Shown: positions 5,698 through 63,430, numbered from the stretch's first letter. The stretch: DNA of 64,000 nt from Patescibacteria group bacterium (GCA_004322365.1 SCTS01000006.1:4777-68776), one strand, 5' to 3'. Notes: generated by a model from the letters alone, not told the origin. Numbers and translations: made by a program.

Positions 5698-5729
5698 ATA
5701 TTTTTACTTTTAATTAATTTTTAATAAGA

Positions 5730-6350: not shown

Positions 6351-6393
6351 AGTTTTGTAGTTACTGTAATAATGACCTTTCTAATAGAAATAG

Positions 6394-7524: not shown

Positions 7525-7528
7525 ACCG

Positions 7529-9823: not shown

Positions 9824-9847
9824 ATTACTTGTAGTGAGTCTGTCGAA

Positions 9848-10123
9848 CTATTTCCTCTTTAATTTATACACCTTGAGAATTTCTTCTTTTGCCTTGTCTA
9901 TTTTGCCTGACTTCACTTGATTTAAGATGCAGCCACCAAGATGATTCTCGAGGAGAAGATCTTCAACATTCGAAAGCCCCTGTTTTACTGCAGATGTCTG
10001 GGTAATTACATCAATGCAATAGATATCACTCTCAACCATCTTTTGAAGCCCTCGAACTTGACCTTCTAAAAGTTTGAGTCGGCGAATGACTTTCGCTTTA
10101 CTAGTATCATCCATGTATTTCAT
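9848..10123 (-). CDS. csoR: CsoR/RcnR family metal-sensing repressor
   Basis: About 90 aa after trimming to the internal Met (the ORF-track start is GTG at 10165). RRLKLLEGQVRGLQKMVE..YC..H..C is the CsoR signature. Confidence 0.8.
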   Translation of the reverse strand: MKYMDDTSKAKVIRRLKLLEGQVRGLQKMVESDIYCIDVITQTSAVKQGLSNVEDLLLENHLGGCILNQVKSGKIDKAKEEILKVYKLKRK

Positions 10124-10128
10124 ACAAA

Positions 10129-10156
10129 CAAGTATACCCCCTAGGGGGTATACTTG
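10129..10156. promoter_or_regulatory. perfect 28-bp palindrome CAAGTATACCCCCTAGGGGGTATACTTG; CsoR-type operator
   Basis: Read directly from sequence. GC-tract pseudo-palindrome of the ATACCC..GGGTAT type, 5 bp upstream of the csoR start codon. Confidence 0.7.
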
Positions 10157-10163
10157 CAAGTCC

Positions 10164-10191
10164 ACATACCCACATTTGAGTGTGGGTATGT
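10164..10191. promoter_or_regulatory. second palindrome ACATACCCACA-TTTGAG-TGTGGGTATGT between the cusA stop and csoR
   Basis: 11-bp arms with ends related to the CsoR box (TACCC..GGGTA). Could be a second operator or a T-run-less terminator of cusBA. Confidence 0.45.
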
Positions 10192-21256: not shown

Positions 21257-22264
21257 TCACCACTCTTGCTGTACATCAGAGAATTCTTCCTGCTTCAAAA
21301 GATAGTTTAAGCCACCCACGATAGCGGCGATCTGAGCATTGACGCAGATTTCATCGGTAACCCTAGGGCTATCGGGATACACTTCTGTGGTCGTGGTATA
21401 TACGGCGTCTGAAAAGCCAGCGCACAACTTGGACTCTTTGAAATCATAGTTAACCACTCCTTCTTGCTCGAGCGGAGTTCCGATAATGTTGCCATTTTCA
21501 TCAGCTTGAGCGATGTGGGTTACCTCTCTAACCGACTCGATGATAGCTTTCTGAAAATCCGCCTGCGGATTCTTGGTATCGCCGACAGCGTAAAATCCGT
21601 CGGGGATCTCCGACCACTCCTCGGCTTTTCCATCCCGCTCGCCTTTCGCTGGTCGGAAAACGGTGTTGTCGGTGTCGGTCGTCTCGTGAAGATCAAAATG
21701 TGCAAAGGGCTTGATGTCCTTCATCGCACGCAAGAAAAGCTGGCACTCCTCAACCGGACTCCCATCACGGAACGAACGATTCGGATCGAACGCCTGTGCA
21801 TTCCAACGATTAATCGTCTCGTAAGCCCAGGGACTAACACAAGGCACGCACACAAAATTAAACTTGCCGTCAAACTGTCCAGCCGCGCGTTCCAGAAATC
21901 CGAGCGCGCCTTGAACACCGCTGGTTTCATAACCGTGTACGCCACCAGTGATTAAAATCGTTTTTTTGTCGGGAGAAAAATTTGGAGATTTTAGAAGATA
22001 GAGCGGGTAACGCTTTGGATCCTGCGAGAGCGCTCCGTATTGCTGAACTTCGAATCTGCCCCTCAGCTCTAAGACTCTGCCAACAACTTCTTCGTTATAA
22101 GAGCGCTTAGGTGTTTGCTCTCGAGACCAGCGGTCGACATCCGTCTTCGTCCACTTCCAATCTTCCATTCCGGTCAGGCTGACTTTGGAGCGGGTTTCCT
22201 TAGACAATTCGGCTGCCATAGTTCTTCTACCGTACAATTTAGATACTCTCTTGTCAAACTCCAC
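21257..22264 (-). CDS. M14-family zinc carboxypeptidase-like protein
   Basis: HGYE (HxxE) and downstream DLHE His motifs. The DNA is locally GC-rich (about 50%) relative to its neighbours. Confidence 0.5.
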   Translation of the reverse strand: MEFDKRVSKLYGRRTMAAELSKETRSKVSLTGMEDWKWTKTDVDRWSREQTPKRSYNEEVVGRVLELRGRFEVQQYGALSQDPKRYPLYLLKSPNFSPDKKTILITGGVHGYETSGVQGALGFLERAAGQFDGKFNFVCVPCVSPWAYETINRWNAQAFDPNRSFRDGSPVEECQLFLRAMKDIKPFAHFDLHETTDTDNTVFRPAKGERDGKAEEWSEIPDGFYAVGDTKNPQADFQKAIIESVREVTHIAQADENGNIIGTPLEQEGVVNYDFKESKLCAGFSDAVYTTTTEVYPDSPRVTDEICVNAQIAAIVGGLNYLLKQEEFSDVQQEW

Positions 22265-22314
22265 TTCATTTGAATCCGTAAGAAATCCTTACAAGTTGCC
22301 CTTCACCTCACTAC

Positions 22315-23820
22315 TCAACTAACCATGTCTCGGAGGTGCTTCCAAATTTGGTACATAGCGTAGGTATCAAGGGCGCAGTATGTTCTCAGGTCTTTGGCAA
22401 TCTTCGCCCGCTCTTGTTCTGTAATAGTTGGAGAAATCATTTGCCACCACGCATCTGATGCCGCACCACCTTCAGAAATATCTAAGTCAGCGTGGCGAAC
22501 TCCTTCCACAAGCGCAGGGAGTACTTTCTTAATAGAAGTCTTTCCACGAAAATCGGGATGCACATAATACTGCTTTTGAAATACATCTCGAAGATCGTAC
22601 ATCTGTGTATTTATACGCTCCAAAGCAATACGCTCATCAGGTTGCCTGAGAGCTAGTTCCCTATTCACTCCCTGCTCAAAGCTCTTATTCCACGAAATTA
22701 CACTACCCTCCGGAAGAATATGTTCCGCCAACATTTCAGCTACTTTCTCGGAAGGGTCAGAGCACTCTTCGTGAAGATACTCCACATGTCGAACTTCACC
22801 GGCAGGAGTATCCAAAATATGAAGTGAAAATTGAAACGGAATTCGCTTGTATGGGCTGTAGCCCGTAAACATAGGTATGGCTGGGGCAAAAGTTTCGTAG
22901 TCCAAAAAGTAGAGAGGAAATATGAGTGCCTCTATCTCCGCGCGAATAGCATCAAGGTCAATAATAGGTTTCTGATTTCTATACACGAGGAGCTGATTCA
23001 ATTGAATATCACTCAAATCTACATCCGCAGGAACATCATCCAAACTAAACACTTCTCGCTCCACCAGCGTTGCTAGTTTCTTCTTACTACTGCCAATCCG
23101 TGCCAAGTCGTGAATAGAATATTCAGGAACCTGCGGATTAGAATGTTTGAATGTTGAGCAATGAGCGCTCCGTCCTGAAAAGATACAGTCACATCCTTTC
23201 ATGGGCTCTTCTGTTTGTGTCAGGTGATATTTGGCCGCCTCCATCTGCTCTTCAACCTGAGGCATGCGTGCAATAACCTTCTCGGTCATATCTTCTACTC
23301 TAAACAACTCCTCCGGAACAAGGTCACCCATGCGTACATATTCTTTATTAAGGTGAATGATGAAAAATTTTCCTGTCTGAACTTTTGCGCGCTTCAAAAC
23401 AGATGCTTGAAAAGTAAGGTCGTCTATATGATCACGAGTCTTCCCCTCCTCCTTAATTGAGTTTGTGCCTTTTATTTCATACAGATCGAAGCACGCATTC
23501 TTTTTGTCGTACGCAAGCGCATCGTTTTTTGCAATAAACCCGTCAACAACAAATGTTGCTTGAAATATCGCAGGTATTTCTGCAAGCATAAACCGCTCTG
23601 TTTCTCGTACCGCTTCATCTCCGGTTTCAGTAACGAGCACACCTCCAGGGAAAAGATTTCGGGCATACGCTTCAACTTCATTTCCCTGCTCAGCTAATTG
23701 AAGTTCAAACGCTGAAAGTGAAAAAAGCTTCATAAGCTCAGGCCTATGAAGCTTGAGCCAGATGTTCTTTGGACACATCAGGAATTCGAGGAAAGTTGTT
23801 TTGGAGATGAGGGTGGACAC
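22315..23820 (-). CDS. DUF2779-type nuclease (Cas4/RecB-like PD-(D/E)xK region with Cys cluster plus C-terminal DxE exonuclease-like region)
   Basis: DLYEIKGT (E-x-K), CDCIFSGRSAHC cluster, YFLDYETF motif. 501 aa. Confidence 0.5.
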   Translation of the reverse strand: MSTLISKTTFLEFLMCPKNIWLKLHRPELMKLFSLSAFELQLAEQGNEVEAYARNLFPGGVLVTETGDEAVRETERFMLAEIPAIFQATFVVDGFIAKNDALAYDKKNACFDLYEIKGTNSIKEEGKTRDHIDDLTFQASVLKRAKVQTGKFFIIHLNKEYVRMGDLVPEELFRVEDMTEKVIARMPQVEEQMEAAKYHLTQTEEPMKGCDCIFSGRSAHCSTFKHSNPQVPEYSIHDLARIGSSKKKLATLVEREVFSLDDVPADVDLSDIQLNQLLVYRNQKPIIDLDAIRAEIEALIFPLYFLDYETFAPAIPMFTGYSPYKRIPFQFSLHILDTPAGEVRHVEYLHEECSDPSEKVAEMLAEHILPEGSVISWNKSFEQGVNRELALRQPDERIALERINTQMYDLRDVFQKQYYVHPDFRGKTSIKKVLPALVEGVRHADLDISEGGAASDAWWQMISPTITEQERAKIAKDLRTYCALDTYAMYQIWKHLRDMVS

Positions 23821-23846
23821 GAGATGTACCCAATACTATATAGTGT

Positions 23847-24602
23847 TTATGGAAGTTTCTGAAACACAAACAAATGCTCGTGCATTATCAATAAGAAATT
23901 CGCCTCTTTAGATTTAGTAACCCAAAATCCAGTGGCTTTGCAGTTAAACTGCCTCTTTATAATGTCTTCCTTTAAAACAAAACCGACTTTCAAAAATCTA
24001 TCCATCACCTTAAATGCAAGGGGTTGATACATTTTATTTCTGCGTGTATCTCCCATCAAAATGGCACAAAATTTTCCTGGCTTTAAAACCCTATAAAGCT
24101 CCTGTGCGACTTTCTCAATTTCATCAACAAAAGCATCTATATTATGTATCCCTGACAAATCCTCTTCTATTTTCCCCTCACTATATTTAATAATGTCTGC
24201 GTATGGAGGATGAGTTAAAACAAAATCAATTTCATTATCTTTAATAAAACTCATATCCCTCGCATCACATTTCACTACTCGCTGTTTTGCCTTATTATCA
24301 ACTTCAAATTCGAGAGATTTTTTCGTTCTCTCCAATGCCACCTCATTTACATCAATGCAAGTAATATGGCGATTTAATATCTTTGCTTCAATTGCTGTCG
24401 TACCCCCACCGATCATGCAATCGAGTAAATGATCCTTTTCTTTTGAATACCGCAAAATAAGGTTGCGAACAACCTCGGGTGCCCAATTACCTCGCCAATC
24501 TGACTTATGTGTTGCCCAATTACCTCTCCGTGGAAATGCCCAGACCGTGGTACATTCCAGTTCAAAATCGTCGGGATGAAGTTTGAAATCTTTTGTAGGC
24601 AT
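23847..24602 (-). CDS. DNA methyltransferase, N6-adenine/N4-cytosine class (second methylase of R-M cassette)
   Basis: AdoMet motif LLDCMIGGGTTAIEA, acidic motif II, HPPY catalytic motif. Confidence 0.65.
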   Translation of the reverse strand: MPTKDFKLHPDDFELECTTVWAFPRRGNWATHKSDWRGNWAPEVVRNLILRYSKEKDHLLDCMIGGGTTAIEAKILNRHITCIDVNEVALERTKKSLEFEVDNKAKQRVVKCDARDMSFIKDNEIDFVLTHPPYADIIKYSEGKIEEDLSGIHNIDAFVDEIEKVAQELYRVLKPGKFCAILMGDTRRNKMYQPLAFKVMDRFLKVGFVLKEDIIKRQFNCKATGFWVTKSKEANFLLIMHEHLFVFQKLP

Positions 24603-25411
24603 TATTTTACTTGTAGAATATATTTTTTACTTTTAGATACACTCATCCCGATACTAGATTCTGAGGTATCCTCAATCAAATCATAAGCCCAATACTCAAC
24701 ACCTATTTTATTTGTCACTGCCAATAAAACTAACGAATGCACTTTTTTATTCTGTAGCAATTTTTTCCACTTAAGCATCGGGAGTAAAGCCTGATTAACA
24801 TCAAATTTCGTTTGAGTAAACGAACTCTTCATTTCTACAATTACAACAGTCTCTGGCCACTCAAAACCTCCATCTATTTCAATTTGTGCTTTAGTCATAT
24901 CAACGCTCTTACCACCAACAATAAGATGAATATCTGCTTTTTGACGACCTCCTGTAAACAACACTCCATTTTCACTTAAACTATAAAAATCAGAAATGAT
25001 ACCAGCATGGTTTGCGATCGCCAAAAGAGTGGTCTCCCCAGGGTTTGAGTTTAAAGCCAGCGTTTCCTTGATTCCCGCAAGCATCCCTTCAGTTAATTCA
25101 TTTTTTATCTTAAAAATTCCACCAACTGTCGGCTCTTGAAAATCAATACCCGGTGGACTTTTAACAATTTTCCATGAACTACGACTTATGGGAATTTTCA
25201 CTATCCCTCTTTTCTGAACAGCATTCACATGTTTTGAACTTGAATGAAATATACGGATTTCTCCTTGCCCTGATTTCGTATATTTTGATAAAATAGGTTC
25301 TAAATCCGATTTATCATATTCAACAACATCAACACCTTTCGGTCTTTTGTCCCATTTTTTCTTTAAAAGAATCTCCCAAGCCTCCTCTTTCCATGAATCC
25401 TTCTTGGGCAT
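24602..25411 (-). CDS. putative Type II restriction endonuclease (middle gene of M1-R-M2 cassette)
   Basis: Assigned by its position between the two methylases, as in mboA-mboB-mboC. Possible PD..(E)xK region VVIVEMKSS. No direct family recognition. Confidence 0.4.
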   Translation of the reverse strand: MPKKDSWKEEAWEILLKKKWDKRPKGVDVVEYDKSDLEPILSKYTKSGQGEIRIFHSSSKHVNAVQKRGIVKIPISRSSWKIVKSPPGIDFQEPTVGGIFKIKNELTEGMLAGIKETLALNSNPGETTLLAIANHAGIISDFYSLSENGVLFTGGRQKADIHLIVGGKSVDMTKAQIEIDGGFEWPETVVIVEMKSSFTQTKFDVNQALLPMLKWKKLLQNKKVHSLVLLAVTNKIGVEYWAYDLIEDTSESSIGMSVSKSKKYILQVK

Positions 25412-25416
25412 AAATA

Positions 25417-26400
25417 TTAATAATTCGTTACCAAAACCTCATTGATTTTTCCTCTTTTCGAGGCATCTGAATTGATCATTCTTCCTGCTTTTATTTTGTG
25501 AATATTTATTTTTCTATCCTTAATTTCTGTATAGATTTTGTTTATGAAGGGAGTGTCAGAATTTGAAAGCATCACAAAACACCCACGCTTATGCAATTCT
25601 AAAAAAGTATCGCGAAGTTCAATTTGTTCTTTTTCTAAAAACTCTTCTGCAGTGTACGCAGTAAACGAAGCGGTTTTGCTAACTGGGTAATAAGGGGGGT
25701 CAAGGTAGATGAAGTCACCTTTTTGGGCGTATCGAAGAACCTTCTTGTAATCAGCAACCTTTATTTCCGTGTGTTGAAGTGTCTCTGACACTTTACGCAA
25801 ATTTTCTACATCACAAATGAGAGGATTAGAGTGCCTTCCAAAAGGTATATTGAACTTTCCACTTTTATTCACGCGATACATGCCGTTAAAACCTGCACGA
25901 TTCAAAAAGATAAAACGAGAAGCTACTTCCACGTCTGACAAAGAAACTGGATCCTGTGCACGCACTTTGTAATAATATTTTTCTTCGTACCGATGTTTTT
26001 TTAGAGACTTTATGAGCGATCCAACATCATCACGAATCACTTTATATGTGGTAACAAGTTCAGCGTTGCTATCAGAAAGGTAGGCCTTCTCTGGCTCAAG
26101 ATCAAAAAAAACTGCACCGCCTCCAACAAATGGTTCGAAATATCTATGTCGCACAGGATCAAACCCATCGGGAGGATAAAGCCCCAACTCCTTAAATTGT
26201 TTTAGTAGTTGTCTTTTACCGCCAACCCACTTTATAAAGGGCTTTGCCTTATGAGCGATTGCATGCGATGGCCCTAGAGGGAGCTTTCCTGTGACGTTTT
26301 TTACCGCAAGAACATGGGCATAGATACGATTGATGCCAAATTCAGCCTGATAGACCTTAGCAGCCTTTTTTATTACGGCGTCGTTTGTTACAGCGCTCAT
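25417..26400 (-). CDS. Dam-family (D12 class) N6-adenine DNA methyltransferase
   Basis: KWVGGKRQLL AdoMet motif and DPPY catalytic motif. 327 aa. Confidence 0.8.
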   Translation of the reverse strand: MSAVTNDAVIKKAAKVYQAEFGINRIYAHVLAVKNVTGKLPLGPSHAIAHKAKPFIKWVGGKRQLLKQFKELGLYPPDGFDPVRHRYFEPFVGGGAVFFDLEPEKAYLSDSNAELVTTYKVIRDDVGSLIKSLKKHRYEEKYYYKVRAQDPVSLSDVEVASRFIFLNRAGFNGMYRVNKSGKFNIPFGRHSNPLICDVENLRKVSETLQHTEIKVADYKKVLRYAQKGDFIYLDPPYYPVSKTASFTAYTAEEFLEKEQIELRDTFLELHKRGCFVMLSNSDTPFINKIYTEIKDRKINIHKIKAGRMINSDASKRGKINEVLVTNY

Positions 26401-26479
26401 AGAAGTTAATTATTAACCATATTGTAACATCCCATTTATTGGTGCGACTGCGCTAGGAACTTGGTACGAAGTTGGAACC

Positions 26480-27052
26480 TTATTGAGTAAAGCCTTCCGG
26501 TAATTCCATGTCAGAAGGTAGGCCCATTTGAGCTAAAGGGTTTTTAGTAAGATTAACTTCAGAAAAATGAGCGTTGCCTGAAAGGAACTCCTGCTGGAGT
26601 TTATCGGGCATGTATATTTTATTTGAGGGGGATTTTATGTTGTGCAGGTATATATTTCTCAAATTGAAGGTGAGTTCATCGACTGAGTTGATAATTTCTT
26701 GGCAATTGGAATTTGCTCCCGCTTCTCCGTATCGGTGAATCAAATAACCTTCCGACAATTGTTTTAAGAATTCAACCTTGTGCGGATCACCAAGGATTGT
26801 AGAAAAGTAGGGGTCTCTACTTTTGTACTTTATCAAAAGTTTAATTAAGTCGTGTCCTCGCTCTTTTTCGTAATTTAGTCTGAGTATAGCTTTGACGTAC
26901 AATTCGATTGCTTGATGGGCATTTGAACAGCCCACCGACACCCAACCATACGAGAGAGCGCGGCGTGCACTTATATAAAATGCGTCGGCGTTAGAAAATA
27001 AAAAAATAAAATCTAAGGCCCCATTTTTAATTAGTTCAAAAGGTTTATCCAT
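26480..27052 (-). CDS. HEPN-like helical protein
   Basis: All-helical; R-x4-H motif (RNIYLH) near the C-terminal region, consistent with HEPN. No closer family call is possible. Confidence 0.35.
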   Translation of the reverse strand: MDKPFELIKNGALDFIFLFSNADAFYISARRALSYGWVSVGCSNAHQAIELYVKAILRLNYEKERGHDLIKLLIKYKSRDPYFSTILGDPHKVEFLKQLSEGYLIHRYGEAGANSNCQEIINSVDELTFNLRNIYLHNIKSPSNKIYMPDKLQQEFLSGNAHFSEVNLTKNPLAQMGLPSDMELPEGFTQ

Positions 27053-27150
27053 AATTTGCTGGGAAATAGGGATTCGGATAATTTTCAGTCAAGCCCCATA
27101 AGGTTTTTAGCCGGTTTTTTGACTCAGACTCAAGCTCTTCGGAATGGAGA

Positions 27151-28038
27151 TCATGCCTTTAAATTTGCCTGAATTTCTCCAATAAGATCGTATATATAAT
27201 CGACCGGTAGTGCTACGGAATAACCCGAGTTTTGTAAATTTGTATTATATAACTCTGGAAATCGAACGTTCCTCCATTGATCAACAAAGGGAACGAACTG
27301 AACAACTACCCCAATGAGATGGATGTCTCCATTTCCTAACCCTGTTGCGTTCATTTCTAATACAAGCCCCCCGCTATTTCCACCATACACAGGACAGTCA
27401 AGAATCAAGGATTTATTTATATTATTTTTCCCAGCGATTATTCCTTTTCTAACCAAAGGGGAATCGTAATCTATCTGATTCATTTCGGGCGTACTGAGTG
27501 ACACTGGGTAGCCAAGGATAAATATATCGTTAGTGATTACCACGTCGTCGAATCGCCTGGACCCTGTCATATCATAATGTACAATCATTCCTTCGGATTT
27601 TTGAATGATTTGTATAGTTTCAAGAAAATCGATATTGCCATCTTCACTTCTCACTTCTGCCAATTTAATAACAACAATGTCTCCGCTCGCATGTGCTTTT
27701 AAATCATTTGAATCTGAGAGTGCTTCTATATTGAGCTCGAACATCTGTGGTTTGGTAGATACCTTTCCCGAAACTACAGGATAAGCAATCATCTTCATTT
27801 TCTTATCAAGTAGATTAAAAGCCTTAGTGACTTGATCTTGCTGATAGAGAACATGCTTTGCTGTCACCAAATATAACTGGTTACCATGTCTAATAATAAA
27901 ACCCGAGCCTGAACTGCCACCGACTAAAAGCTTTACTGGGTAGCTCAAGTTATCTGTAGGTAATTTCATATCAAGTTTTTTATACTTCTTGGACTTCAAA
28001 CCTATCGCAAGTTTGCTAGAAAACAGGGATTCGGTCAC
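27151..28038 (-). CDS. cytoplasmic trypsin-like (S1 family) serine peptidase
   Basis: Catalytic triad regions TAKHV (His), GDIVVIKL (Asp), GNSGGLV (Ser). No signal peptide. GTG start. Confidence 0.7.
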   Translation of the reverse strand: MTESLFSSKLAIGLKSKKYKKLDMKLPTDNLSYPVKLLVGGSSGSGFIIRHGNQLYLVTAKHVLYQQDQVTKAFNLLDKKMKMIAYPVVSGKVSTKPQMFELNIEALSDSNDLKAHASGDIVVIKLAEVRSEDGNIDFLETIQIIQKSEGMIVHYDMTGSRRFDDVVITNDIFILGYPVSLSTPEMNQIDYDSPLVRKGIIAGKNNINKSLILDCPVYGGNSGGLVLEMNATGLGNGDIHLIGVVVQFVPFVDQWRNVRFPELYNTNLQNSGYSVALPVDYIYDLIGEIQANLKA

Positions 28039-28202
28039 CCGTCACTAAGTATTTTACTCCTCAAATTCGTAAAATACTAAGTGCGCTCAATCTCGTTCTA
28101 TTTTTTTACCCCAATTAGCTTCTTGTGTTGCTATCCGCAACATCCGCGAAGTGAATTCGAGCTTTTTTGTAATGGATCGCTTCGCTCGCAAAAAACTCTA
28201 AT

Positions 28203-28245
28203 TCAAGGCTTCAAAGGCCTCTGTCCTACTGTCTAGCGAATGAGG
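28203..28245. repeat. partial degenerate copy of tRNA-Gln (D-arm to anticodon region)
   Basis: 25 nt identical to 28307-28331 of the intact tRNA-Gln, then decays. Confidence 0.55.
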
Positions 28246-28277: not shown

Positions 28278-28348
28278 CTGGGGAACAGGGATTCGAACCC
28301 CAATTAAAGGCTTCAAAGGCCTCTGTCCTACCATTAGACGATTCCCCA
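28278..28348 (-). tRNA. tRNA-Gln (anticodon TTG)
   Basis: Manual cloverleaf: acceptor TGGGGAA/TTCCCCA, anticodon loop CTTTGAA, T-loop TTCGAAT, discriminator G. Confidence 0.8.
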
Positions 28349-28441: not shown

Positions 28442-28505
28442 ATTACCTAACTTCTAGCTTACAGGTGACAGCTTATAGGTTTTAGCTTTAAACTTCAACC
28501 TTTAT

Positions 28506-29298: not shown

Positions 29299-29340
29299 TC
29301 CTGAAAGCTGAAAGCTGGAACCTGGAACCTGACACCTAGC
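29299..29340. repeat. degenerate heptamer tandem array (GCTGAAA GCTGAAA GCTGGAA CCTGGAA CCTGACA CCTAGCT)
   Basis: Read from sequence. Member of the leader-associated heptamer family (see findings). Confidence 0.6.
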
Positions 29341-42826: not shown

Positions 42827-42888
42827 TGATCCCTTCGGATCCGATGAAGCATCGCCTAAAAGCTAGAAGCTATAACCTAGAACCTTCC
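42827..42888. repeat. leader element upstream of dus: 33-bp two-hairpin block plus heptamer array (AGCTAGA AGCTATA ACCTAGA ACCT)
   Basis: Block TGATCCCTTCGGATCCGATGAAGCATCGCCTAA is 32/33 identical to the reverse complement of 35666-35698. Confidence 0.6.
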
Positions 42889-42890
42889 TG

Positions 42891-43697
42891 TTATTCCCCT
42901 TTAAACTTTATATATACTTTGTCGCCAAAACGGAAATCTGCGTATTCAAACTCCTTGTTTTTTTTGAAGCTTTGGGATGCAAAAACTGATGCAATGTTTT
43001 CAAGGGTAGCCTGCTGGTTTGATGTAGTGCGAACAAACTTCAATACCCCACCGTCCGCAAACGCAAGCTCAACATCATTTGAAGTGCCATCAACAATAAC
43101 GGTCTCTGGAATGCGATGTATAGATGAAGCAATGCCAGTAACTAATGTATTGAGAGAAGCAAAACCGCCATCAAGGTATGTGCTACCAATAGGCACACTT
43201 GAAAGCGCCCCATAAAAACGAATCATCGGCGGTACATCCGTCACGGAAGCAAAAATAAATCCGTTTTTGTCGACACTGTAACAAGCTTCCTCTGCAGCAC
43301 CATCGCACCACAGAGCAGTCGCCCCTCGCTCTTCGGCAGTTACAGTGAGCACATTAAAACCATTTCGAGAGATGGTAATTTTTGCCAGTGGAGGAAAGGC
43401 AGTGGCTACGGCATTCTCTATATTTCTTTTTGGAAACAATAAGGAGTTTCTGTAGGGAATCCAATATGCGTATGAGCCATCCAATTTTTCTTCGACAAGT
43501 TTTTTAACTTCATCAGCTGAAACTATTGAAGTTCCTTTCACTTCAATTGAAGCAATTGTGGTTGCTGGAATACGCGCAAGAAACCACACAGCTATCAGCG
43601 ACAGAGCGACAACTGCACTGCCCGCAGCCACCTTCACCCACACTAATCGGCGTCGCCTATCTCGAAGACTAAGTTTTGGCTGTTGCGAATTTGGCAT
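42891..43697 (-). CDS. FtsQ/DivIB-like cell-division protein (TM + POTRA)
   Basis: Basic N-terminus, single TM, extracellular domain; in a division-site neighbourhood. Confidence 0.45.
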   Translation of the reverse strand: MPNSQQPKLSLRDRRRRLVWVKVAAGSAVVALSLIAVWFLARIPATTIASIEVKGTSIVSADEVKKLVEEKLDGSYAYWIPYRNSLLFPKRNIENAVATAFPPLAKITISRNGFNVLTVTAEERGATALWCDGAAEEACYSVDKNGFIFASVTDVPPMIRFYGALSSVPIGSTYLDGGFASLNTLVTGIASSIHRIPETVIVDGTSNDVELAFADGGVLKFVRTTSNQQATLENIASVFASQSFKKNKEFEYADFRFGDKVYIKFKGE

Positions 43698-44995: not shown

Positions 44996-45042
44996 AGGTT
45001 ATAGGTTACAGGTTACAGGTTACAGGTTTTAGCTTTAACAGC
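44996..45042. repeat. heptamer array AGGTTAT AGGTTAC AGGTTAC AGGTTAC AGGTTTT AGCTTTA in the serS/dprA divergent region
   Basis: Read from sequence; cleanest member of the family. Confidence 0.7.
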
Positions 45043-51499: not shown

Positions 51500-51543
51500 C
51501 CTGTATAGTATAATTTAACGGTCGTTAAATTATACTATACAGG
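51500..51543. promoter_or_regulatory. 44-bp perfect palindrome CCTGTATAGTATAATTTAACG-GT-CGTTAAATTATACTATACAGG (copy 1)
   Basis: 21-bp arms; contains TATAAT on both strands; second copy at 56610-56651. Confidence 0.6.
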
Positions 51544-51701: not shown

Positions 51702-51782
51702 GCCGGAGTGGTGGAATGGTATACACGCACGACTCAAAATCGTGTCTCGCAAGGGATGAGGGTTCGAGTCCCTCCTCCGGCA
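51702..51782 (+). tRNA. tRNA-Leu (anticodon CAA)
   Basis: Manual fold: acceptor GCCGGAG/CTCCGGC, anticodon stem CACGA/TCGTG with loop CTCAAAA, long variable arm, T-loop TTCGAGT. Confidence 0.8.
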
Positions 51783-51833
51783 CTTGCCAAGCAAGAAGAC
51801 GGAGCACACTGCATTTCTGCAGTGTGGGAGAGG

Positions 51834-51875
51834 GGCTCGAAAAGCGGAAGACGCCTCGTCTCCCTATCGAGGGCC
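51834..51875. repeat. inverted copy (D) of the tRNA-associated repeat body (GGAAGACGCCTCGTCTCC hairpin core)
   Basis: Reverse complement matches ..CCCTCAAAGGGAGACGAGGCGTCTTGAGCTCGAAA of repeat A. Confidence 0.5.
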
Positions 51876-52000
51876 AGTGTTTTTTGCAACAAAAAACCGT
51901 GAGGCGGCGATTAGAAAATCGTGCCGAGAGGCTCTGCGACTTAAGGTGAACATGGGTGAACCTTAAAGTTCTAGGTGTGTTCCCCTTCCTTCTGGCACAC

Positions 52001-52450: not shown

Positions 52451-52458
52451 CGATCCAA

Positions 52459-52495
52459 AAGCTGAAAGCTGTAACCTGACACCTGAAAGCTGGTC
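52459..52495. repeat. heptamer array GCTGAAA GCTGTAA CCTGACA CCTGAAA GCTGG between prx and 5-FCL
   Basis: Read from sequence. Confidence 0.6.
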
Positions 52496-56609: not shown

Positions 56610-56651
56610 CAATATAGTATAATCTAACGGTCGTTAAATTATACTATATTG
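56610..56651. promoter_or_regulatory. second copy of the 44-bp TATAAT-containing palindrome (one arm mismatch)
   Basis: CAATATAGTATAATCTAACG-GT-CGTTAAATTATACTATATTG. Confidence 0.6.
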
Positions 56652-59074: not shown

Positions 59075-59162
59075 ACCTTATAAAATATACTCTTCTGTTC
59101 GAAGTAAGTAAAAAAGTATCTTTTGTATACAAGCAACTATAGTCGCTTCGCTCGTTATTTTT

Positions 59163-59220
59163 GCGGGGCCACAAGGATTCGCCTCTCGTCGCTGCTGCAA
59201 CTCGAAACCTACGGCCGCTC
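59163..59220. repeat. repeat C: tRNA-Trp 3'-end-like fragment (GGCCACAAGGATTCG) joined to the conserved repeat body (CTCTCG..CTCGAAACCTACGGCCGCTC)
   Basis: 16/17 match to 59546-59562 of tRNA-Trp. Body shared with repeat A. Confidence 0.55.
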
Positions 59221-59223
59221 AAA

Positions 59224-59457
59224 TCAAGATAGATGCCTTTTTATGAAAGCTCTTCCGGAACCTGATTTGAGATATTTTTCAAACTCAAATGCTTTGTATT
59301 TATCTGCGATAGCAACATAGAATTCCAAAGCTACAGGTAGACGCTCTCTCGTGGCAAGAACTTGACCTTTCATATGCCTACTCATTCTATCTTTCAAATC
59401 AGTAGTACATCCAATATAGAATCCGTCTTTGCACTTTAAGCTATATACATACCACAT
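59224..59457 (-). CDS. GIY-YIG nuclease family protein (small)
   Basis: YVYSLKCKDGFYIGCTTDLKDRMSRH carries the GIY..YIG and catalytic Arg motifs. 77 aa. Confidence 0.7.
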   Translation of the reverse strand: MWYVYSLKCKDGFYIGCTTDLKDRMSRHMKGQVLATRERLPVALEFYVAIADKYKAFEFEKYLKSGSGRAFIKRHLS

Positions 59458-59543
59458 AAAATTTCACTTCAGCGGGTTTCACCACGCCGAAGCCATGACG
59501 AATCCCACCTTCGTCTCGAGACGGGACTTCGGCGTGGCAAAGG

Positions 59544-59614
59544 CGGGCCCACAAGGATTCGAACCTTGATCGACGGTTTTGGAGACCGTAATTCTACCAT
59601 TGAACTATAGGCCC
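59544..59614 (-). tRNA. tRNA-Trp (anticodon CCA)
   Basis: Manual fold: acceptor GGGCCTA/TGGGCCC, anticodon stem ACGGT/ACCGT with loop CTCCAAA, T-arm CAAGG-TTCGAAT-CCTTG. Confidence 0.8.
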
Positions 59615-60417: not shown

Positions 60418-60465
60418 AGAAAATATATAAATAAGTGAACTCCTTTCAGTATATAACAAATCTCG

Positions 60466-60550
60466 GGTTGGATTCGCTTCTCGCGTTTGACCCTCAAAGG
60501 GAGACGAGGCGTCTTGAGCTCGAAACCTACGGTCGCTGTGCGGACAACAG
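60466..60550. repeat. repeat A: tRNA-Tyr T-arm-like fragment (GGGTTGGATTCG) joined to repeat body with GGAGACGAGGCGTCTTG hairpin and CTCGAAACCTACGGTCGCTGTGCGGACAAC
   Basis: 12/12 identity to 63354-63365 of tRNA-Tyr. Same orientation as repeat B on the other side of the copper cassette. Confidence 0.6.
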
Positions 60551-60600
60551 TTCCAACTGCAACTATTCAGAATAGATGAAGAAACTTGTTGTTCATATGA

Positions 60601-60819
60601 TTAGATAATTTCCCCTGTCTTCTCAAGCATCATGTGATGGATGGTGCTGATGGCAAGCCAGATTGCAATAAGCATGAGGACAGCTGAGCACATGAGTGCA
60701 TCCATTTTCGTGATTCCGAACACGTCCTCAGAATTACCGAAAACACTAATCAAGAAAGATACAACTCCAATAAATCCGGCAACTACACTGCCTACATGTA
60801 TTGCTTTTGATAGTTTCAT
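60601..60819 (-). CDS. small 2-TM HHM-motif membrane protein (paralog of 5476-5697)
   Basis: 72 aa; about 45% identical to the locus-1 paralog; 24 bp downstream of the copB-type ATPase. Confidence 0.5.
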   Translation of the reverse strand: MKLSKAIHVGSVVAGFIGVVSFLISVFGNSEDVFGITKMDALMCSAVLMLIAIWLAISTIHHMMLEKTGEII

Positions 60820-60842
60820 AATTTTATTTTATTTTTTAATAT

Positions 60843-62762
60843 TTATAAAGTTCTTCTTCCCAGCAGAACCGCATTGATCGCCACAATGACAGTTGAAAGA
60901 GACATGAACACCGCCGCTAACCACGGTTGCAATATAATACCCCAAGGCGCGAGTACTCCAGCAGCCAATGGAATAGCGACGACGTTATAGCCGGTTGCCC
61001 AGAAGAGATTCTGGATCATTTTATTGTAGGTAAGACGGGAGAGATTAAAAATTTTCGGAATATCTCTCGGGTCATTTTTAACAAGTATTATTCCCGCAGA
61101 TTCAATGGCCACGTTTGTACCTGCGCCAATTGCGATACCTAGGTTTGCTTGAGCAAGAGCGGGGGCATCATTTACTCCGTCGCCAACCATTGCAACTCTG
61201 CGACCATTACTTTGGAGCAACTTTACTTTTTCAGATTTTTCTTCAGGTCGAACGCACGCAAAATACTCATCAATACCAAGCTCGTTGGCAACTTCTTTCG
61301 CTACGTCCTCGGAATCTCCCGTAATCATCGAGACTAAAATGCCTGCTTCTTTCAAATGTGCCACTGCTTCCTTTGCTTCAGGGCGAACAGAATCGGCTAC
61401 TACGATCGTGCCAATAACCTCACCATCTTTTTCAACGACAATATCCTTACCACCTCGATGACCAACAAAAATAGTAATGCCGTCCACTTTTGCTTCTACT
61501 CCAGTACCCGCGATAGTTTTAAACTCTCTTACTTCTCCAATGTGTAGATTTCTCTTTTGAGCTTCTTTCAGAATTGCCTTGCCGATTGGGTGCTCGGAGT
61601 TTGTTTCCACTGCGGCTGCGAGTGCAAGTACCTCATCTGAGGTTACTGAAACGACACCAAATTCTCCTTTGGTGAGCGTACCCGTTTTATCGAACAAGAC
61701 CGTATCAATCTTCCGAGCTTCTTCAAGTGCGATTCTTTGGCGGATTAACAAACCATTTCTTGCTGCCATTGTTGTTGATATCGCAGCAACTAGCGGTACT
61801 GCCAGACCTAGTGCATGAGGGCAGGCAATTACGAGAACGGCGACAAAACGCTCGACAGCGGTGAGAGTGCCGGCGCCTAGAGCGATCCATGCTGTAAACG
61901 TAATGCCCCCACCAACGATAGCTACAATGGTGAGATAGAACGCAGCTTGATCTGAAAGCACCTGTAATCGCGACTTTGACGCCTGTGCCTCAGCTACCAG
62001 GCGCATTACTCCTGCAAGAAACGTTTTCTCTCCAATGGTACTAATCTCAACTGTGAGGCTACCATCTCCATTTATTGAACCAGCGATGACCTCGGCGCCT
62101 ACAGTTTTTCGCACTGGCTTCGATTCTCCTGTAAGAATGGATTCATTTACATTTGATAGCCCCTCAATTACTTTGCCATCAGCAGGGATTTTTGAGCCCG
62201 GCTTTATCAAAACAACATCGCCAACCTTAAGTTCAGAAATTGAGATCGTTATCGTAGAGCCACCACGAATAACATCTGCAGTATCAGGGAGCAGTTTTGA
62301 TAACTCTTTGAGTGCCCCTTGTGCGTTGGTGACAGATTTCATCTCAATCCAATGACCAAGAAGCATAATTGTTATTAGAGACGCGAGTTCAAACATCAGA
62401 TCATGCATCCCGCCTGAGAGTATTGAGAAGGTGCTATACGCGTAAGCGGCAGTAACTGCAATGGCAATGAGCGTCATCATGCCGGGCAATCTGTCTTTTA
62501 GCTCCCGGTATGCACTTTGGAGAAATACCCAACCACAGTAAAAGTAGGTAACCGAGCCGAGTAGAAGCAAAAGGTATTGCCACCCGATGAACTCGGGACC
62601 ACGAATATTAAAAACCTCCATAGCCATTTCTGAGTAGAAGAAAATGGGGACGGAAAGTACCAAAGAAATCCAGAACTTCTTTAAGAAGTCGGCAGTGTGA
62701 TGCCCGGCGTGTTTGTCATGCTGTGCCTCATGCTGGTGATGAGGCGAGTGGTTGTGGTCCAT
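60843..62762 (-). CDS. P1B-type heavy-metal ATPase, CopB-like (CPH motif, His-rich N-terminus, no HMA domain)
   Basis: MDHNHSPHHQHEAQHDKHAGHH N-terminus, [26 protein letters not shown]. Confidence 0.85.
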   Translation of the reverse strand: MDHNHSPHHQHEAQHDKHAGHHTADFLKKFWISLVLSVPIFFYSEMAMEVFNIRGPEFIGWQYLLLLLGSVTYFYCGWVFLQSAYRELKDRLPGMMTLIAIAVTAAYAYSTFSILSGGMHDLMFELASLITIMLLGHWIEMKSVTNAQGALKELSKLLPDTADVIRGGSTITISISELKVGDVVLIKPGSKIPADGKVIEGLSNVNESILTGESKPVRKTVGAEVIAGSINGDGSLTVEISTIGEKTFLAGVMRLVAEAQASKSRLQVLSDQAAFYLTIVAIVGGGITFTAWIALGAGTLTAVERFVAVLVIACPHALGLAVPLVAAISTTMAARNGLLIRQRIALEEARKIDTVLFDKTGTLTKGEFGVVSVTSDEVLALAAAVETNSEHPIGKAILKEAQKRNLHIGEVREFKTIAGTGVEAKVDGITIFVGHRGGKDIVVEKDGEVIGTIVVADSVRPEAKEAVAHLKEAGILVSMITGDSEDVAKEVANELGIDEYFACVRPEEKSEKVKLLQSNGRRVAMVGDGVNDAPALAQANLGIAIGAGTNVAIESAGIILVKNDPRDIPKIFNLSRLTYNKMIQNLFWATGYNVVAIPLAAGVLAPWGIILQPWLAAVFMSLSTVIVAINAVLLGRRTL

Positions 62763-62795
62763 ATTATTTTTTCTTTTGAATTAGCTTGTACACTT

Positions 62796-63035
62796 TCAAC
62801 ATCTCATCGATAGCTTTTTTTCTTTACCGATCTTCATCTGATGTAATACGTGAGTAGATAGGTGGTTTTCAAGCATAAGATTTTCCACTCCGGAAAGCGC
62901 CTCCTTGATTGCATTCGACTGCGTAATAATCTCAATACAGTATTTTTCGTCTTCAATCATCTTCATCAGGCCCTTTAGCTGACCTTGTACAATTTGGAGA
63001 CGACGAACAATTTTTTTCTTAGTATCAGACTTCAT
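62796..63035 (-). CDS. CsoR/RcnR family repressor (second copy)
   Basis: RRLQIVQGQLKGLMKMIE..YC..H..C. Start trimmed to MKSDTKKK. Confidence 0.75.
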   Translation of the reverse strand: MKSDTKKKIVRRLQIVQGQLKGLMKMIEDEKYCIEIITQSNAIKEALSGVENLMLENHLSTHVLHQMKIGKEKKLSMRC

Positions 63036-63042
63036 TATAGTA

Positions 63043-63062
63043 TTATACCCCCTAGGGGTATT
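63043..63062. promoter_or_regulatory. CsoR-type box TATACCCCCTAGGGGTATTA (one G shorter than the locus-1 box), 8 bp upstream of the csoR-2 start
   Basis: Same ATACCCCC-TA-GGGGTAT core as 10129-10156. Confidence 0.6.
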
Positions 63063-63140
63063 AGACACAAACAAAACACCCCTTATTTTTCGAATCCAGC
63101 AAAAAAGTCATTTGTGCGGACATGGGTAAATCTAGACGAA

Positions 63141-63212
63141 TTGGATTCGGTTCTTACATTTGACCCTCAGAGGAAGACAAAGCGTCTTCCGTCCGCGCAC
63201 TTGTGCGGACAC
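63141..63212. repeat. repeat B: TTGGATTCG fragment joined to repeat body (TTTGACCCTCAGAGGAAGACAAAGCGTCTTCC..TGTGCGGACA)
   Basis: About 75% identical to repeat A over 55 nt; lies 135 bp from the tRNA-Tyr 3' end. Confidence 0.6.
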
Positions 63213-63347
63213 GGATAAATCTCCTGACGGAGATTTTCCGCGATCCCCGCCTCGGTATTTTTGCCTTTCGCTTCGCTCAAACAAAAATATACCTGCGGCC
63301 GCGCACAAAGCAGAAAACCTCCCGCAGGGGAGGTATTTCTAGCTTTG

Positions 63348-63430
63348 TGCGCCGGGTTGGATTCGAACCAACGAAGACCGAAGTCAGGAGATTTACAGTC
63401 TCCCCTCGTTGACCACTTGAGTACCGACGC
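63348..63430 (-). tRNA. tRNA-Tyr (anticodon GTA)
   Basis: Manual fold: acceptor GCGTCGG/CCGGCGC (one G-T pair), anticodon loop CTGTAAA, long variable hairpin TGACTTCGGTCTTCG, T-arm GTTGG-TTCGAAT-CCAAC. Confidence 0.8.

Follow-up and report, generated by a model that had tools for sequence, protein, structure and literature searches.

A 2.57-kb copper operon in a Patescibacteria genome has, in our reading, been inserted inside a small structured element linked to a tRNA gene, and four repeats in the same stretch of DNA, A to D, are copies or fragments of that element's family; we put the probability of this reading at about 70%. The window, the whole stretch that we analysed, comprises 64,000 nucleotides (GCA_004322365.1 SCTS01000006.1:4777-68776). 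A reading made from sequence alone (the sequence-only reading) had taken A and B, which flank the copper genes, for scars of two insertions at the 3′ end of tRNA-Tyr that delimit the cassette.

The copper operon forms a csoR/copB/small-protein unit that is complete in itself and includes a presumed operator. On the minus strand it encodes a 79-aa csoR-family repressor (62796-63035; PF02583, E = 4.6e-21), a 639-aa P1B-type, CopB-like ATPase (60843-62762; PF00122 and PF00702, and translation) with a CPH motif and a His-rich N-terminus, and a 72-aa membrane protein (60601-60819) that has no Pfam family and, by repeat search, a paralogue at ORF 5476-5697. Upstream of csoR lies the palindrome ATACCCCTAGGGGGTAT (63045-63061, minus strand), which we presume from its resemblance to CsoR boxes to be the CsoR operator; its ATACCCC-N3-GGGGTAT form is kept in loci L039-L041. 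Pfam hits and translation bear out the copper cargo proposed earlier, and repressor, P1B ATPase and presumed operator together are those of a CsoR-regulated copper efflux operon. The cassette ends carry no inverted repeats by inspection and the three ORFs (CsoR, ATPase, small membrane protein) include no transposase, which sets the cassette apart from an IS or composite transposon.

A genome scan with the core pattern of the repeat body returned 32 loci, all in Patescibacteria MAGs, the pattern itself forcing part of their apparent core conservation. About 25 of these lie 60-330 nt downstream of a co-oriented tRNA, with at least 12 isotypes represented. At 13 of these the body is followed by an exact or near-exact copy of the adjacent tRNA's 3′ end (at most 1 mismatch within the first 21 nt, length at least 17 nt); the copy starts at T-loop C56/G57 and typically spans 17-21 nt, extending to 65-69 nt in two of the 13. 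The att-associated element family suggested by the sequence-only reading thus holds as regards the tie between body and tRNA 3′ fragments, and fails as regards A and B as ends of the cassette.

Read on the tRNA-sense strand, a complete unit consists of the tRNA, a terminator-like hairpin, an arm a′, a conserved core and an arm a. The a′ arm repeats in inverted orientation the 3′ strands of the tRNA's acceptor and T-stem together with the T-loop, and a is a direct copy of the tRNA 3′ end that runs to just beyond the discriminator. The core is ordered CGAACC-GCGGGCCGCAG, hp1 (6 bp, loop GAAGA), GTAGGTTTCGAG, hp2 and CGAGAGGC, where hp2 takes one of two forms, a short one with an AGCA loop or, in A, B and D, a double hairpin of 35 nt. 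L035 has the large form too, within a complete canonical unit at tRNA-Val, where a G-C pair of A is replaced by A-U in a compensatory change. Repeats A and C match the core pattern and the core HMM, and are interrupted copies, both missing the complete left half; B and D have just the large hp2 module in common with A and L035. The core motifs GTAGGTTTCGAR ... CGAGARGCGAWTCC are found together with a covarying hp2, as is a co-oriented upstream tRNA whose own 3′ end forms the terminus (13 nt in A, 12 + 5 nt in C). Searches of Rfam 15, the viral contigs, INPHARED phages and PLSDB plasmids gave no match to the family, and Rfam 15, including its group I introns and small ribozymes, reports tRNAs only in the window, L001, L003-L005 and six element loci. 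We conclude that the four repeats belong, as copies or fragments, to a tRNA-linked element family that is widespread in Patescibacteria and apparently undescribed.

The resemblance among A to D and their tRNA-like starts might in principle be chance or a generic T-loop, because part of the common start (GGATTCG) is the universal T-loop and B matches tRNA-Tyr over 9 nt only. We reject this explanation, whose probability is close to nil: the 18-mer AAGACGCCTCGTCTCCCT, allowing up to 3 mismatches, occurs 3 times (A, B and D) against 0.05 expected by chance, HMM scores reach E = 1e-16 to 1e-26, and in 13 cases the tail follows the adjacent tRNA for 11 nt or more past the pattern-forced bases.

At the copper locus the intact tRNA-Tyr(GTA) adjoins the repeats, as had been noted (63347-63430, minus strand; ARAGORN, Rfam tRNA model 53.1 bits). 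A terminator-like hairpin follows it (63301-63353, minus strand; terminator scan hit at 63317-63334, and sequence comparison), in whose outer arms the acceptor 3′ strand GGCGCACAAAGC pairs with an inverted copy, GCTTTGTGCGC; these arms co-vary in L001, L003, L004 and L005. Next comes a proximal element module (63202-63300, minus strand), a hairpin and then a long S1-type hairpin (GGCGGGGATCGCGG...CCGTGTCCGC) ending in TGTCCGCACA; this type of module is also found 3′ of tRNA-Leu in L001-L003 and of tRNA-Trp in L003. Repeat B (63137-63211) has its body and tail at 63137-63201 on the minus strand, with a small hairpin, an hp2-type double hairpin (63157-63190) and the tail GAACCGAATCCAATTCG. The block containing B is flanked by two minus-strand copies of a 22-bp direct repeat, AGATTTAYCCRTGTCCGCACAA: copy 1 (63201-63222) is the L003-type allele, from which L005 differs by 2 nt, and copy 2 (63112-63133) is the L002-type allele.

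Repeat A occupies 60464-60536 on the minus strand, or 60464-60546 including the right junction repeat (core HMM E = 2.9e-4; alignment to relatives), and comprises the hp1 3′ half (CGACC), GTAGGTTTCGAG, a large hp2 (60484-60518), CGAGAAGC and the tail GAATCCAACCCG. A and B are indeed direct repeats, sharing an ungapped 48-nt block (60468-60515 and 63141-63188) that is 83% identical; a global alignment of the two intervals first assigned to them gives 60 identities in 88 columns. The tRNA-Tyr fragment said to start each repeat is clear in A, where the 13 nt CGGGTTGGATTCG (60464-60476) equal tRNA positions 63353-63365; B shares just the 9 nt TTGGATTCG, partly generic T-loop. Even in A the fragment ends at CCCG, lacking the acceptor end expected of a displaced tRNA 3′ end.

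The boundaries of the cassette emerge from comparison with five syntenic relatives (L001-L005), found by exact-match look-up of L33, whose flanks are 99% (L002), 93% (L004), 89% (L005), 83% (L001) and 79% (L003) identical to the window. The cassette is polymorphic: by blastn and MAFFT it spans 60547-63112 (minus strand), is carried by the window and L002/L038, with 96% nucleotide identity between the window and L002 copies, and is missing from L001, L003, L004 and L005. Its junctions are a 10-bp direct repeat, TGTCCGCACA, at 63113-63122, within copy 2 of the 22-bp repeat, and at 60537-60546 (minus strand), the right copy being S1-equivalent and matching the single copy CTGTGTCCGCACAG of L005. 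The motif TGTGCGGACA, earlier counted as part of the repeat body, is this junction repeat. In both the window and L002 the copper block lies inside the tRNA-Tyr-linked element, between an S1-type segment and the hp1 3′ half, and it has displaced the left half of A (a′, S1 and the hp1 5′ half).

Repeat A holds the same place in L002 and in the cassette-less L004 and L005, and repeat B is absent from L002, which carries the cassette. The single repeat copy in L004, and likewise in L005, aligns to both A and B (blastn, MAFFT), and B forms an 89-bp window-specific block between the 22-bp direct repeats. Relatives with tRNA-Tyr beside bPH/rpmG and no cassette, sought as a check on the sequence-only reading, do exist in L004 and L005, but with A retained; A and B are not the cassette boundaries. 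Nor is the cassette bounded by tRNA 3′-end repeats with one copy in the empty site, as an attL/attR island would be, and no integrase gene, another mark of such an island, was found among the 50 window ORFs scanned. Repeat A was probably present before the copper block arrived, and B is probably a later, window-specific addition. Given the ranking of flank identities, presence in the window and L002 only makes one gain most parsimonious over the six genomes, and the copper genes appear to be a recent insertion into the element, acquired by the ancestor that the window and L002 share.

An unlikely alternative has two integrase-type insertions at the 3′ end of tRNA-Tyr, one after the other, with the cassette as cargo of the older element, whose right end is A. 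Displaced tRNA 3′ ends do stand in tandem at the window tRNA-Gln, at tRNA-Leu in L002 and at tRNA-Tyr in L004, and L002 too has a tRNA-Tyr-tail fragment, GCGAATCCAACCC, between tRNA and cassette. The tRNA-proximal end of the cassette also carries GCTGGATTCGAA (63089-63100, minus strand), tentatively an a′-like, inverted T-arm remnant as read from the sequence, so that cassette plus A resembles a unit of a′, cargo, core and tail. Against this, A persists where the cassette is missing (L004, L005) and B is missing where the cassette is present (L002); the claim that the two are scars of insertions delimiting it finds no support. The tails of A and B stop short, at 13 and 9 nt, and are followed by partial S1 rather than by a tRNA end and terminator, which would require extra deletions, and no integrase was found among 50 window ORFs or in the Pfam annotations of L001-L005.

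Still less probable is an ancestral cassette that L004 and L005 lost by recombination between the S1-type repeats CTGTGTCCGCACAG and CTGTTGTCCGCACAG. Flanking direct repeats of 10-15 bp are the expected substrate for such a deletion, but the hp1 loop and 3′ half (CCGAAGAGCGATCG), missing from the window A, are retained in L005 and L004, so a simple deletion from a window-like allele does not account for them; nor do the outgroups L001 and L003 have the cassette. The insertion reading has its own complication, since the segment to the right of the junction is CGACCGTAGGTTTCGAG in the window and CCGAAGAGCGATCGAATGTCTCGAG in L004/L005; the block therefore did not enter an L005-like allele cleanly. 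No true empty site was found among the relatives, all of which carry some element 3′ of tRNA-Tyr, tRNA-Trp and tRNA-Leu, and this too counts against the insertion reading. In favour of that reading, the repeat body or core is never nearby at the 79 loci with copper-operon homologues elsewhere. The 10-bp TGTCCGCACA could be microhomology rather than a recombination site, a point that counts against the insertion reading.

The other tRNAs of the window carry comparable arrangements. Downstream of tRNA-Trp(CCA) (59542-59614, minus strand) lies repeat C (59163-59222, minus strand; pattern, core HMM E = 5e-7), confirming that the body recurs with a tRNA-Trp fragment. It consists of the 3′ part of a short-form core (GCGGCC GTAGGTTTCGAG TTGC-AGCA-GCGA CGAGAGGC) and the tRNA-Trp 3′-end copy GAATCCTTGTGGcCCCGC, whose 12 + 5 nt make a near-complete 3′ end; in L003 the tRNA-Trp fragment mirrors that genome's own tRNA variant. 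A 77-aa GIY-YIG nuclease gene (59224-59457, minus strand; PF01541, and contexts in other genomes) sits between tRNA-Trp and C, in place of a′, S1 and the hp1 5′ half. The repeat D region (51826-51932, plus strand) follows tRNA-Leu(CAA) (51702-51783), as described, with a degenerate a′ (GGGAGAGGGGCTCGAA), an hp2-type hairpin (51846-51879), CGAGAGGC at 51925-51932 and a decayed tail; D had been called inverted, but relative to its own tRNA its orientation is that of A, B and C. In region 27057-28034 two decayed tRNA-Gln 3′-end copies (28014-28034 and 27057-27077, minus strand) bracket a trypsin-like peptidase ORF, a second case of the layout in the window. All four window tRNAs accordingly have elements or decayed 3′-end copies downstream.

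Genes do lie as cargo between tRNAs and such bodies: the copper operon, the 77-aa GIY-YIG protein (window, L028, L134/L135), a Fic protein (L032) and the peptidase at the window tRNA-Gln. The GIY-YIG protein is one of a very large family in Patescibacteria, marked by a conserved leader after tRNAs, and in 6 of 7 contexts that family lay just 3′ of a tRNA; the window copy has the catalytic domain PF01541, and its 77 aa leave no space for a DNA-binding domain. No recombinase or transposase, RAYT and DDE types included, appears among the 50 window ORFs scanned against Pfam, in agreement with the earlier remark that no integrase is visible there, and for the genes called in L001-L005 the precomputed Pfam annotations list no integrase or recombinase.

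The core has two covarying hairpins, as judged from 14 copies (alignment A2): 89% of cells are paired, against 30-50% with the 3′ partners slid, compensatory changes occur in 4 of 6 hp1 pairs and 3 of 4 hp2 pairs, and none of 500 shuffles reached the observed covariation score. Taken together, hp1 and P1 include 5 G-U pairs and no A-C mismatch, and element folding z-scores are -5 to -6.5. Insertions are tolerated at three places in a unit (S1, hp1 and the region upstream of a′), and the units stack in tandem and turn over fast among close relatives. Possibly, though we hold this tentatively, the a′-core-a units form a new class with a folded core of about 75 nt and arms that reproduce the acceptor/T minihelix of the preceding tRNA, either a new mobile element or a tRNA-mimicking RNA family. 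As a mobile element, a unit would copy itself into tRNA T-loops with a 17-21-nt duplication, perhaps driven by the very abundant tRNA-adjacent 77-aa GIY-YIG nuclease. Under either alternative the units would create insertion hotspots for cargo exchange among Patescibacteria, the copper operon being one example.

That the units are primarily functional RNAs of the host, with cargo incidental, is a somewhat doubtful proposal, and one compatible with the insertion reading of the cassette. Such an RNA might mimic the cognate tRNA's acceptor/T minihelix and be freed by tRNA-processing enzymes, or might serve as a tRNA 3′-trailer processing or termination device. Compensatory covariation in the core hairpins, the preference for G-U over A-C on the tRNA-sense strand, peripheral expansions and an ORF at hairpin positions, as in structured RNAs, and an a′ that follows its tRNA's own acceptor change (orthologous L009 and L019) all point this way, as does the presence of elements or decayed copies after every window tRNA. 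A terminator-like hairpin usually lies between tRNA and unit, however, many copies have decayed tails, close relatives differ sharply in their units, and none of 9 tRNAs in CopB-selected contigs has an exact 12-nt downstream copy. Strong core conservation and covariation, with all four window tRNAs occupied, are also compatible with a function as host RNA instead of mobility.

Among the known systems closest to these units are tycheposons of Prochlorococcus, tRNA-targeting integrative elements with partial-tRNA att repeats and cargo-only arrays (bioRxiv 10.1101/2020.12.28.424599). Shared features are a streamlined genome with variable islets beside tRNA genes, direct repeats that copy the 3′ part of the tRNA from loop to 3′ end, tandem stacking with older units displaced outward, and adaptive cargo such as metal homeostasis genes (bioRxiv 10.1101/2020.12.28.424599). 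Unlike tycheposons, however, the window and the relatives examined yielded no tyrosine recombinase, most patescibacterial units are only 130-330 bp, they have a conserved core with covarying hairpins and an inverted tRNA-end copy, a single core subfamily serves many tRNA isotypes, and the copper cassette junction is a 10-bp repeat within the element rather than a tRNA fragment.

Like MITEs and REPINs, which are miniature hairpin-forming repeats moved in trans, the units are short, non-coding, GC-rich, hairpin-forming, intergenic and multi-copy, with no transposase in cis. Their arms match the adjacent tRNA instead of being constant, they have a set position 3′ of a co-oriented tRNA, and what they duplicate is 17-21 nt of that tRNA in place of a short target site; with no RAYT or DDE gene among the 50 window ORFs, we reject this identity. 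Integron cassettes and attC sites resemble them in having a cargo gene followed by a 60-100-nt imperfect palindrome conserved in structure above sequence, and in cassette-like arrays. There is, however, no attI and, among the 50 window ORFs scanned, no IntI, the elements are tRNA-anchored with tRNA-derived arms, and the junctions are CGAWTCC and TGTCCGCACA rather than GTTRRRY, and this identity too is rejected. T4 SegB is a free-standing GIY-YIG homing endonuclease gene in a tRNA gene cluster (PMC2330249), and the GIY-YIG gene at repeat C likewise adjoins tRNA genes and is variably present among relatives; the window protein, by contrast, comprises the catalytic domain alone, any homing is putative, and most units are ORF-less. 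Group I introns in patescibacterial tRNA genes interrupt the anticodon loop at position 35/36 (PMC13011429). They share with our units the phylum, a structured RNA-like element tied to tRNA genes and an occasional ORF in a peripheral hairpin (PMC13011429), whereas our units lie 3′ of tRNAs that are uninterrupted and match no Rfam intron model.

We suggest that the units may be non-autonomous, either relics or miniatures of elements whose recombination site is the tRNA T-loop, where cargo could enter or be swapped by means of a trans-acting recombinase or nuclease. Alternatively, cargo might arrive through homology- or microhomology-facilitated recombination after DNA uptake. The tRNA and element sequences would serve as anchors for cargo recombination. 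The window also encodes DprA.

The repeats around the copper cassette belong to a family of elements that is linked to tRNA genes, has a covarying structure and turns over rapidly between relatives; this family appears to be undescribed. The sequence-only reading had noted that a common repeat body recurs in the window, and it does: an 18-mer shared by repeats A (60464-60546), B (63137-63211) and D (51826-51932) occurs three times against 0.05 expected by chance. Across six genomes, the window and its syntenic relatives L001 to L005, tRNA-Tyr and tRNA-Trp each precede 100-330 nt of GC-rich sequence whose last part copies the 3′ end of the same tRNA, with the full tRNA-Tyr end in L001 and the full tRNA-Trp end in L004 and L005; the fragment in L003 follows the tRNA-Trp variant of L003 itself. 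Scanning 185,579 species genomes for the pattern GTAGGTTTCGAR-N(10-40)-CGAGARGCGAWTCC returned 32 loci, every one from Patescibacteria MAGs. About 25 of the 32 lie 60-330 nt downstream of a co-oriented tRNA, bearing out the suggested pairing of the repeat body with tRNA 3′ fragments, and the tRNAs preceding units are of isotypes Gln, Glu, Arg, Trp, Met, Tyr, Gly, Ser, Pro, Lys, Val and Ile. At 13 loci the bases after the motif copy the adjacent tRNA from T-loop C56/G57 to 1-3 bases past the discriminator, exactly or near-exactly (at most one mismatch in the first 21 nt); these copies are 17-21 nt long, and 65-69 nt in two loci.

We found no earlier description of these elements in the literature, where partial coverage makes this no proof of novelty. 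Rfam 15, at gathering and E-value thresholds, returned tRNAs alone from the window, four relatives and six element loci, and we therefore rejected known ribozymes, group I introns and tmRNA-like RNAs; the group I introns of patescibacterial tRNAs are anticodon-loop introns, unlike the elements here. The core pattern had no match in viral contigs, INPHARED phages or PLSDB plasmids, so that no phage or plasmid source was found.

Read on the tRNA-sense strand, a complete unit comprises the tRNA; a terminator-like hairpin; a′, in which the 3′ part of the tRNA is copied in inverse orientation (CAGACTTGGATTCGAACC is one example); a core made up of S1 (GCGGGCCGCAG), hp1 (GNNNNC GAAGA GNNNNC), GTAGGTTTCGAG, hp2 (either a 3-5 bp stem with an AGCA loop or a double hairpin of 35 nt) and CGAGAGGC; and the direct tRNA tail. 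In 14 copies, 89% of cells are paired, versus 30-50% with the partners slid; compensatory changes occur at 4 of the 6 pairs in hp1 and 3 of the 4 in hp2, and none of 500 shuffles attains the observed covariation score. Five G-U pairs and no A-C mismatches in hp1 and P1 mildly favor folding of the tRNA-sense strand, and whole units have folding z-scores of -5 to -6.5. We did not adopt a degenerate tRNA cloverleaf for the core, as U33 is absent and the loops are too small. At S1 some copies hold a long hairpin or a common 62-nt insert, which is AT-rich (TCCCGATTTCTTAGGTTGTAATCARCC...TTGTTGCC), splits the stem GCGGGC/GCCCGC, and is shared by tRNA-Trp, Tyr, Arg and Glu units of different genomes (L001 10340-10400, L002 6540-6610, L009 and L034); it could represent an optional RNA domain or a mini-element nested in the unit. 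Long hairpins also form in the tRNA 3′ trailers; the acceptor 3′ strand is part of their outer arms, and the pairing co-varies between genomes (window 63301-63353; tRNA-Tyr in L001 and L003-L005; tRNA-Trp in L002, L004 and L005). The tRNA-Arg 3′ end of L009 and L019 has a full inverted copy of 23 nt, which follows the tRNA's own A/G difference. A motif, GCGAAGCGA / GAGCGAAGC, recurs in element spacers and flanks (window 63275-63285, 59140-59155 and 28175-28190; L007, L023 and L029); the DNA heptamer d(GCGAAGC) forms a mini-hairpin of unusual stability.

All four window tRNAs have downstream elements or decayed 3′-end copies. The tRNA-Val of L035 is followed by a complete canonical unit that also has the large hp2 of A, B and D, with a compensatory change from G-C to A-U. 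A is therefore half of such a unit, the right one, and bears a tRNA-Tyr tail. Repeat C (59163-59222) is likewise a right-hand portion, of a unit with short hp2, and its tail is from tRNA-Trp; B is a chimera in which the large hp2 is joined to another right-end type, found also in L004; and D, which follows tRNA-Leu, is a unit whose a′ is degenerate and whose tail has decayed. Other types of core have the same architecture. In the tRNA-Leu units of L001-L003, a′ and a hairpin precede a long GGGGTCG...GTGACC hairpin, and an exact tail closes the unit; the window's tRNA-Tyr-proximal module (63202-63300) belongs to this type; at tRNA-Trp of L004 and L005 yet another core has an NNNN-TGTAA-NNNN hairpin preceding the tail. 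On the minus strand, two decayed tRNA-Gln 3′-end copies (28014-28034 and 27057-27077) enclose a trypsin-like peptidase ORF, and beyond them (21257-27052) lie HEPN, Dam-type methyltransferase, DUF6997, N6/N4 methyltransferase and DUF2779 genes. This islet 3′ of tRNA-Gln is defense-like, and its layout is cargo plus tRNA tail, as in the element units. About 50 nt downstream of the intact tRNA-Gln there is also a 36-nt copy of its D-arm/anticodon-arm part (28194-28229 versus 28296-28331, 92% identity), different in kind from the 3′-end copies.

The cassette locus itself, in a window of ~43% G+C, reads as follows on the minus strand. Downstream of tRNA-Tyr(GTA) (63347-63430) come a terminator-like hairpin (63317-63334), in whose outer arms the tRNA acceptor 3′ strand pairs with an inverted copy; two more hairpins, the second ending in the 10-bp sequence TGTCCGCACA; repeat B; and a second TGTCCGCACA. 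The cassette then comprises a csoR-family gene (62796-63035) with the palindrome ATACCCCTAGGGGGTAT upstream, a 639-aa CopB-like P1B ATPase (60843-62762) with a CPH motif and a His-rich N-terminus, and a 72-aa membrane protein (60601-60819). A third TGTCCGCACA follows, then repeat A, a bPH gene, rpmG, tRNA-Trp, a gene for a 77-aa GIY-YIG protein and repeat C. A further TGTCCGCACA copy, at 47673, was set aside as a chance match within a coding region.

The sequence-only reading took A and B for scars of two insertions at the tRNA-Tyr 3′ end, bracketing the cassette. The direct repeats are real, with 83% identity over 48 ungapped nt and 60 identities in 88 columns over the full intervals it had delimited; the tRNA-Tyr fragment ascribed to both is 13 nt in A (T-arm/acceptor region) and 9 nt in B. 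An exact-match look-up of ribosomal protein L33 gave the five syntenic loci, whose flank-identity order is L002, L004, L005, L001, L003; the closest relatives, L002 and L006, are MAGs named Candidatus Paceibacterota. L002 (Ga0265292_1000324, also JBBAAE010000002.1) carries this cassette, 96% identical in nucleotides. In L004 and L005 a single repeat stands between tRNA-Tyr and the bPH and rpmG genes. This is the cassette-free arrangement that had been envisaged, except that both retain a repeat: by blastn and MAFFT it is A-like and at the position of A, and A thus exists without the cassette. The same alignments place the L002 junction, where tRNA-proximal sequence meets the cassette, at ...ACCCATGTCCGCACA|AATGAC, with B absent. 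A, kept where the cassette is missing, and B, missing where the cassette is kept, are therefore not its ends; on this comparison A pre-exists the cassette and B is window-specific. The original observation was largely right; its interpretation was right in spirit about an att-like, tRNA-fragment-linked family, but wrong in these specifics.

B is an extra 89-bp block in the window, flanked by a 22-bp direct repeat (63201-63222 and 63112-63133) whose first copy is the L003-type allele (2 nt different in L005) and whose second is L002-type. The presence/absence block is 60547-63112 with TGTCCGCACA at both sides, a cassette polymorphism with a 10-bp junction repeat. One gain in the lineage of the window and L002 is most parsimonious. 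This gain was not a clean insertion, because the sequence right of the junction is CGACCGTAGGTTTCGAG in the window versus CCGAAGAGCGATCGAATGTCTCGAG in L004 and L005. In L001 (JAZJYZ010000001.1) tRNA-Tyr and its element (9856-9939) are inverted relative to ClpB, directly before rpmG, and the tRNA-Tyr gap is occupied by an unrelated 255-aa ORF, as other genes occupy it in L003; the L001 inversion and ORF mark the interval from tRNA-Tyr to rpmG as a rearrangement hotspot.

An exact look-up of the window CopB gave no record. Among its relatives in metagenomes (80 loci) the copper operon is common and never adjoins the core, and the 79 other loci with operon homologues have no core near them. We therefore rejected the cassette as dedicated cargo of the element: it is the more ordinary result, a strain-variable operon that landed in a hotspot, and the element family is the part worth following up. 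The window holds a first copper locus too (4446-10165), with CsoR (9848-10165), an HMA-CopA ATPase (7529-9823), a YncE-like beta-propeller protein, DUF305, the paralogue of the small membrane protein (5476-5697) and a DsbD_2+HMA protein (4446-5501). Beside this locus we saw neither a tRNA nor a core element.

Cargo between tRNA and core varies by locus: the copper operon in the window, a Fic-domain protein in L032, and the 77-aa GIY-YIG protein in the window (59224-59457, minus strand, between tRNA-Trp and repeat C) and L028. This protein has >1,690 homologues; the best 120 are 71-100% identical, and those with a named source are all from Patescibacteria or unclassified MAGs. The contigs of many homologues are very short. 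Seven distinct contexts were examined (from the window, L028 and L119-L136); in six, a co-oriented tRNA (Trp, Ser-GCT or Ser-GGA) lies 75-110 nt before the gene start, with a conserved GC-rich leader in between, GCCACGCTGAAGCGTGGC...GGCGTGACAnAGTCCGC; in L134 and L135, a′, core and an exact 18-nt tRNA-Ser tail lie 3′ of it. The ORF ends exactly at the hp1 3′ half in the window and L028, close to the cassette insertion site in A. The link of this nuclease family to tRNA 3′ flanks is a lead in its own right.

An identity block from a tRNA loop to the 3′ end is a classic mark of tRNA-site integration, and the block from T-loop to tRNA 3′ end in these units may be read as that signature. We suggest that elements recombining at the T-loop were the ancestors of these units, or that the units are miniature forms of such elements, and that cargo would be exchanged through a trans-acting enzyme or homology-facilitated recombination. 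A plain integrase model is at odds with the presence of one core subfamily at several isotypes: copies at Trp and Arg (JAZJYZ01), Glu (L034) and Val (L035, with long hp2) share hp1, and the Trp, Arg and Glu copies also share hp2. It is equally at odds with L001, where a′ and tail are both of the L003-type tRNA-Trp and differ from the resident tRNA, which indicates that the a′-core-tail unit can move, or be retained, as a whole. A host RNA role, as a mimic of the cognate acceptor/T minihelix or as a tRNA 3′-trailer device, is a candidate alternative to recombination at the T-loop. Casposon-like and Tn7-like insertion were rejected, with no terminal inverted repeats or corresponding genes seen. 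Among 50 window ORFs scanned against Pfam there was no recombinase or transposase; DprA is encoded. We compared the identity block with that of tycheposons (bioRxiv 10.1101/2020.12.28.424599). Exact 12-nt downstream copies of tRNA ends numbered 0/9 in CopB-selected contigs, a small sample under a strict probe that gives no estimate of prevalence.

Patescibacteria have tiny genomes with few recognizable mobile elements, and their routes of gene exchange are poorly understood. A tRNA-anchored family that is present at many tRNA loci, shows turnover between near-identical strains and flags the sites of accessory genes (copper efflux, GIY-YIG nuclease, Fic protein and defense-type functions) would offer a concrete handle on cargo acquisition in these genomes, and a searchable marker of variable islets in metagenome-assembled genomes.

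Two other repeat types were seen in the window. Two 36-nt near-perfect palindromes (TATAGTATAATTTAACGGTCGTTAAATTATACTATA; 51504-51539 and 56613-56648), 97% identical and 5.1 kb apart, flank the tRNA-Leu region, and L002 and L004 also hold copies. Intergenic AGCTG/AGGTT-type pentamer repeats (for example TTACAGGTTACAGGTTACAGG and AAAGCTGAAAGCTG) occur in both orientations at 28452-28491, 29304-29337, 42859-42892, 44999-45038 and 52458-52491.
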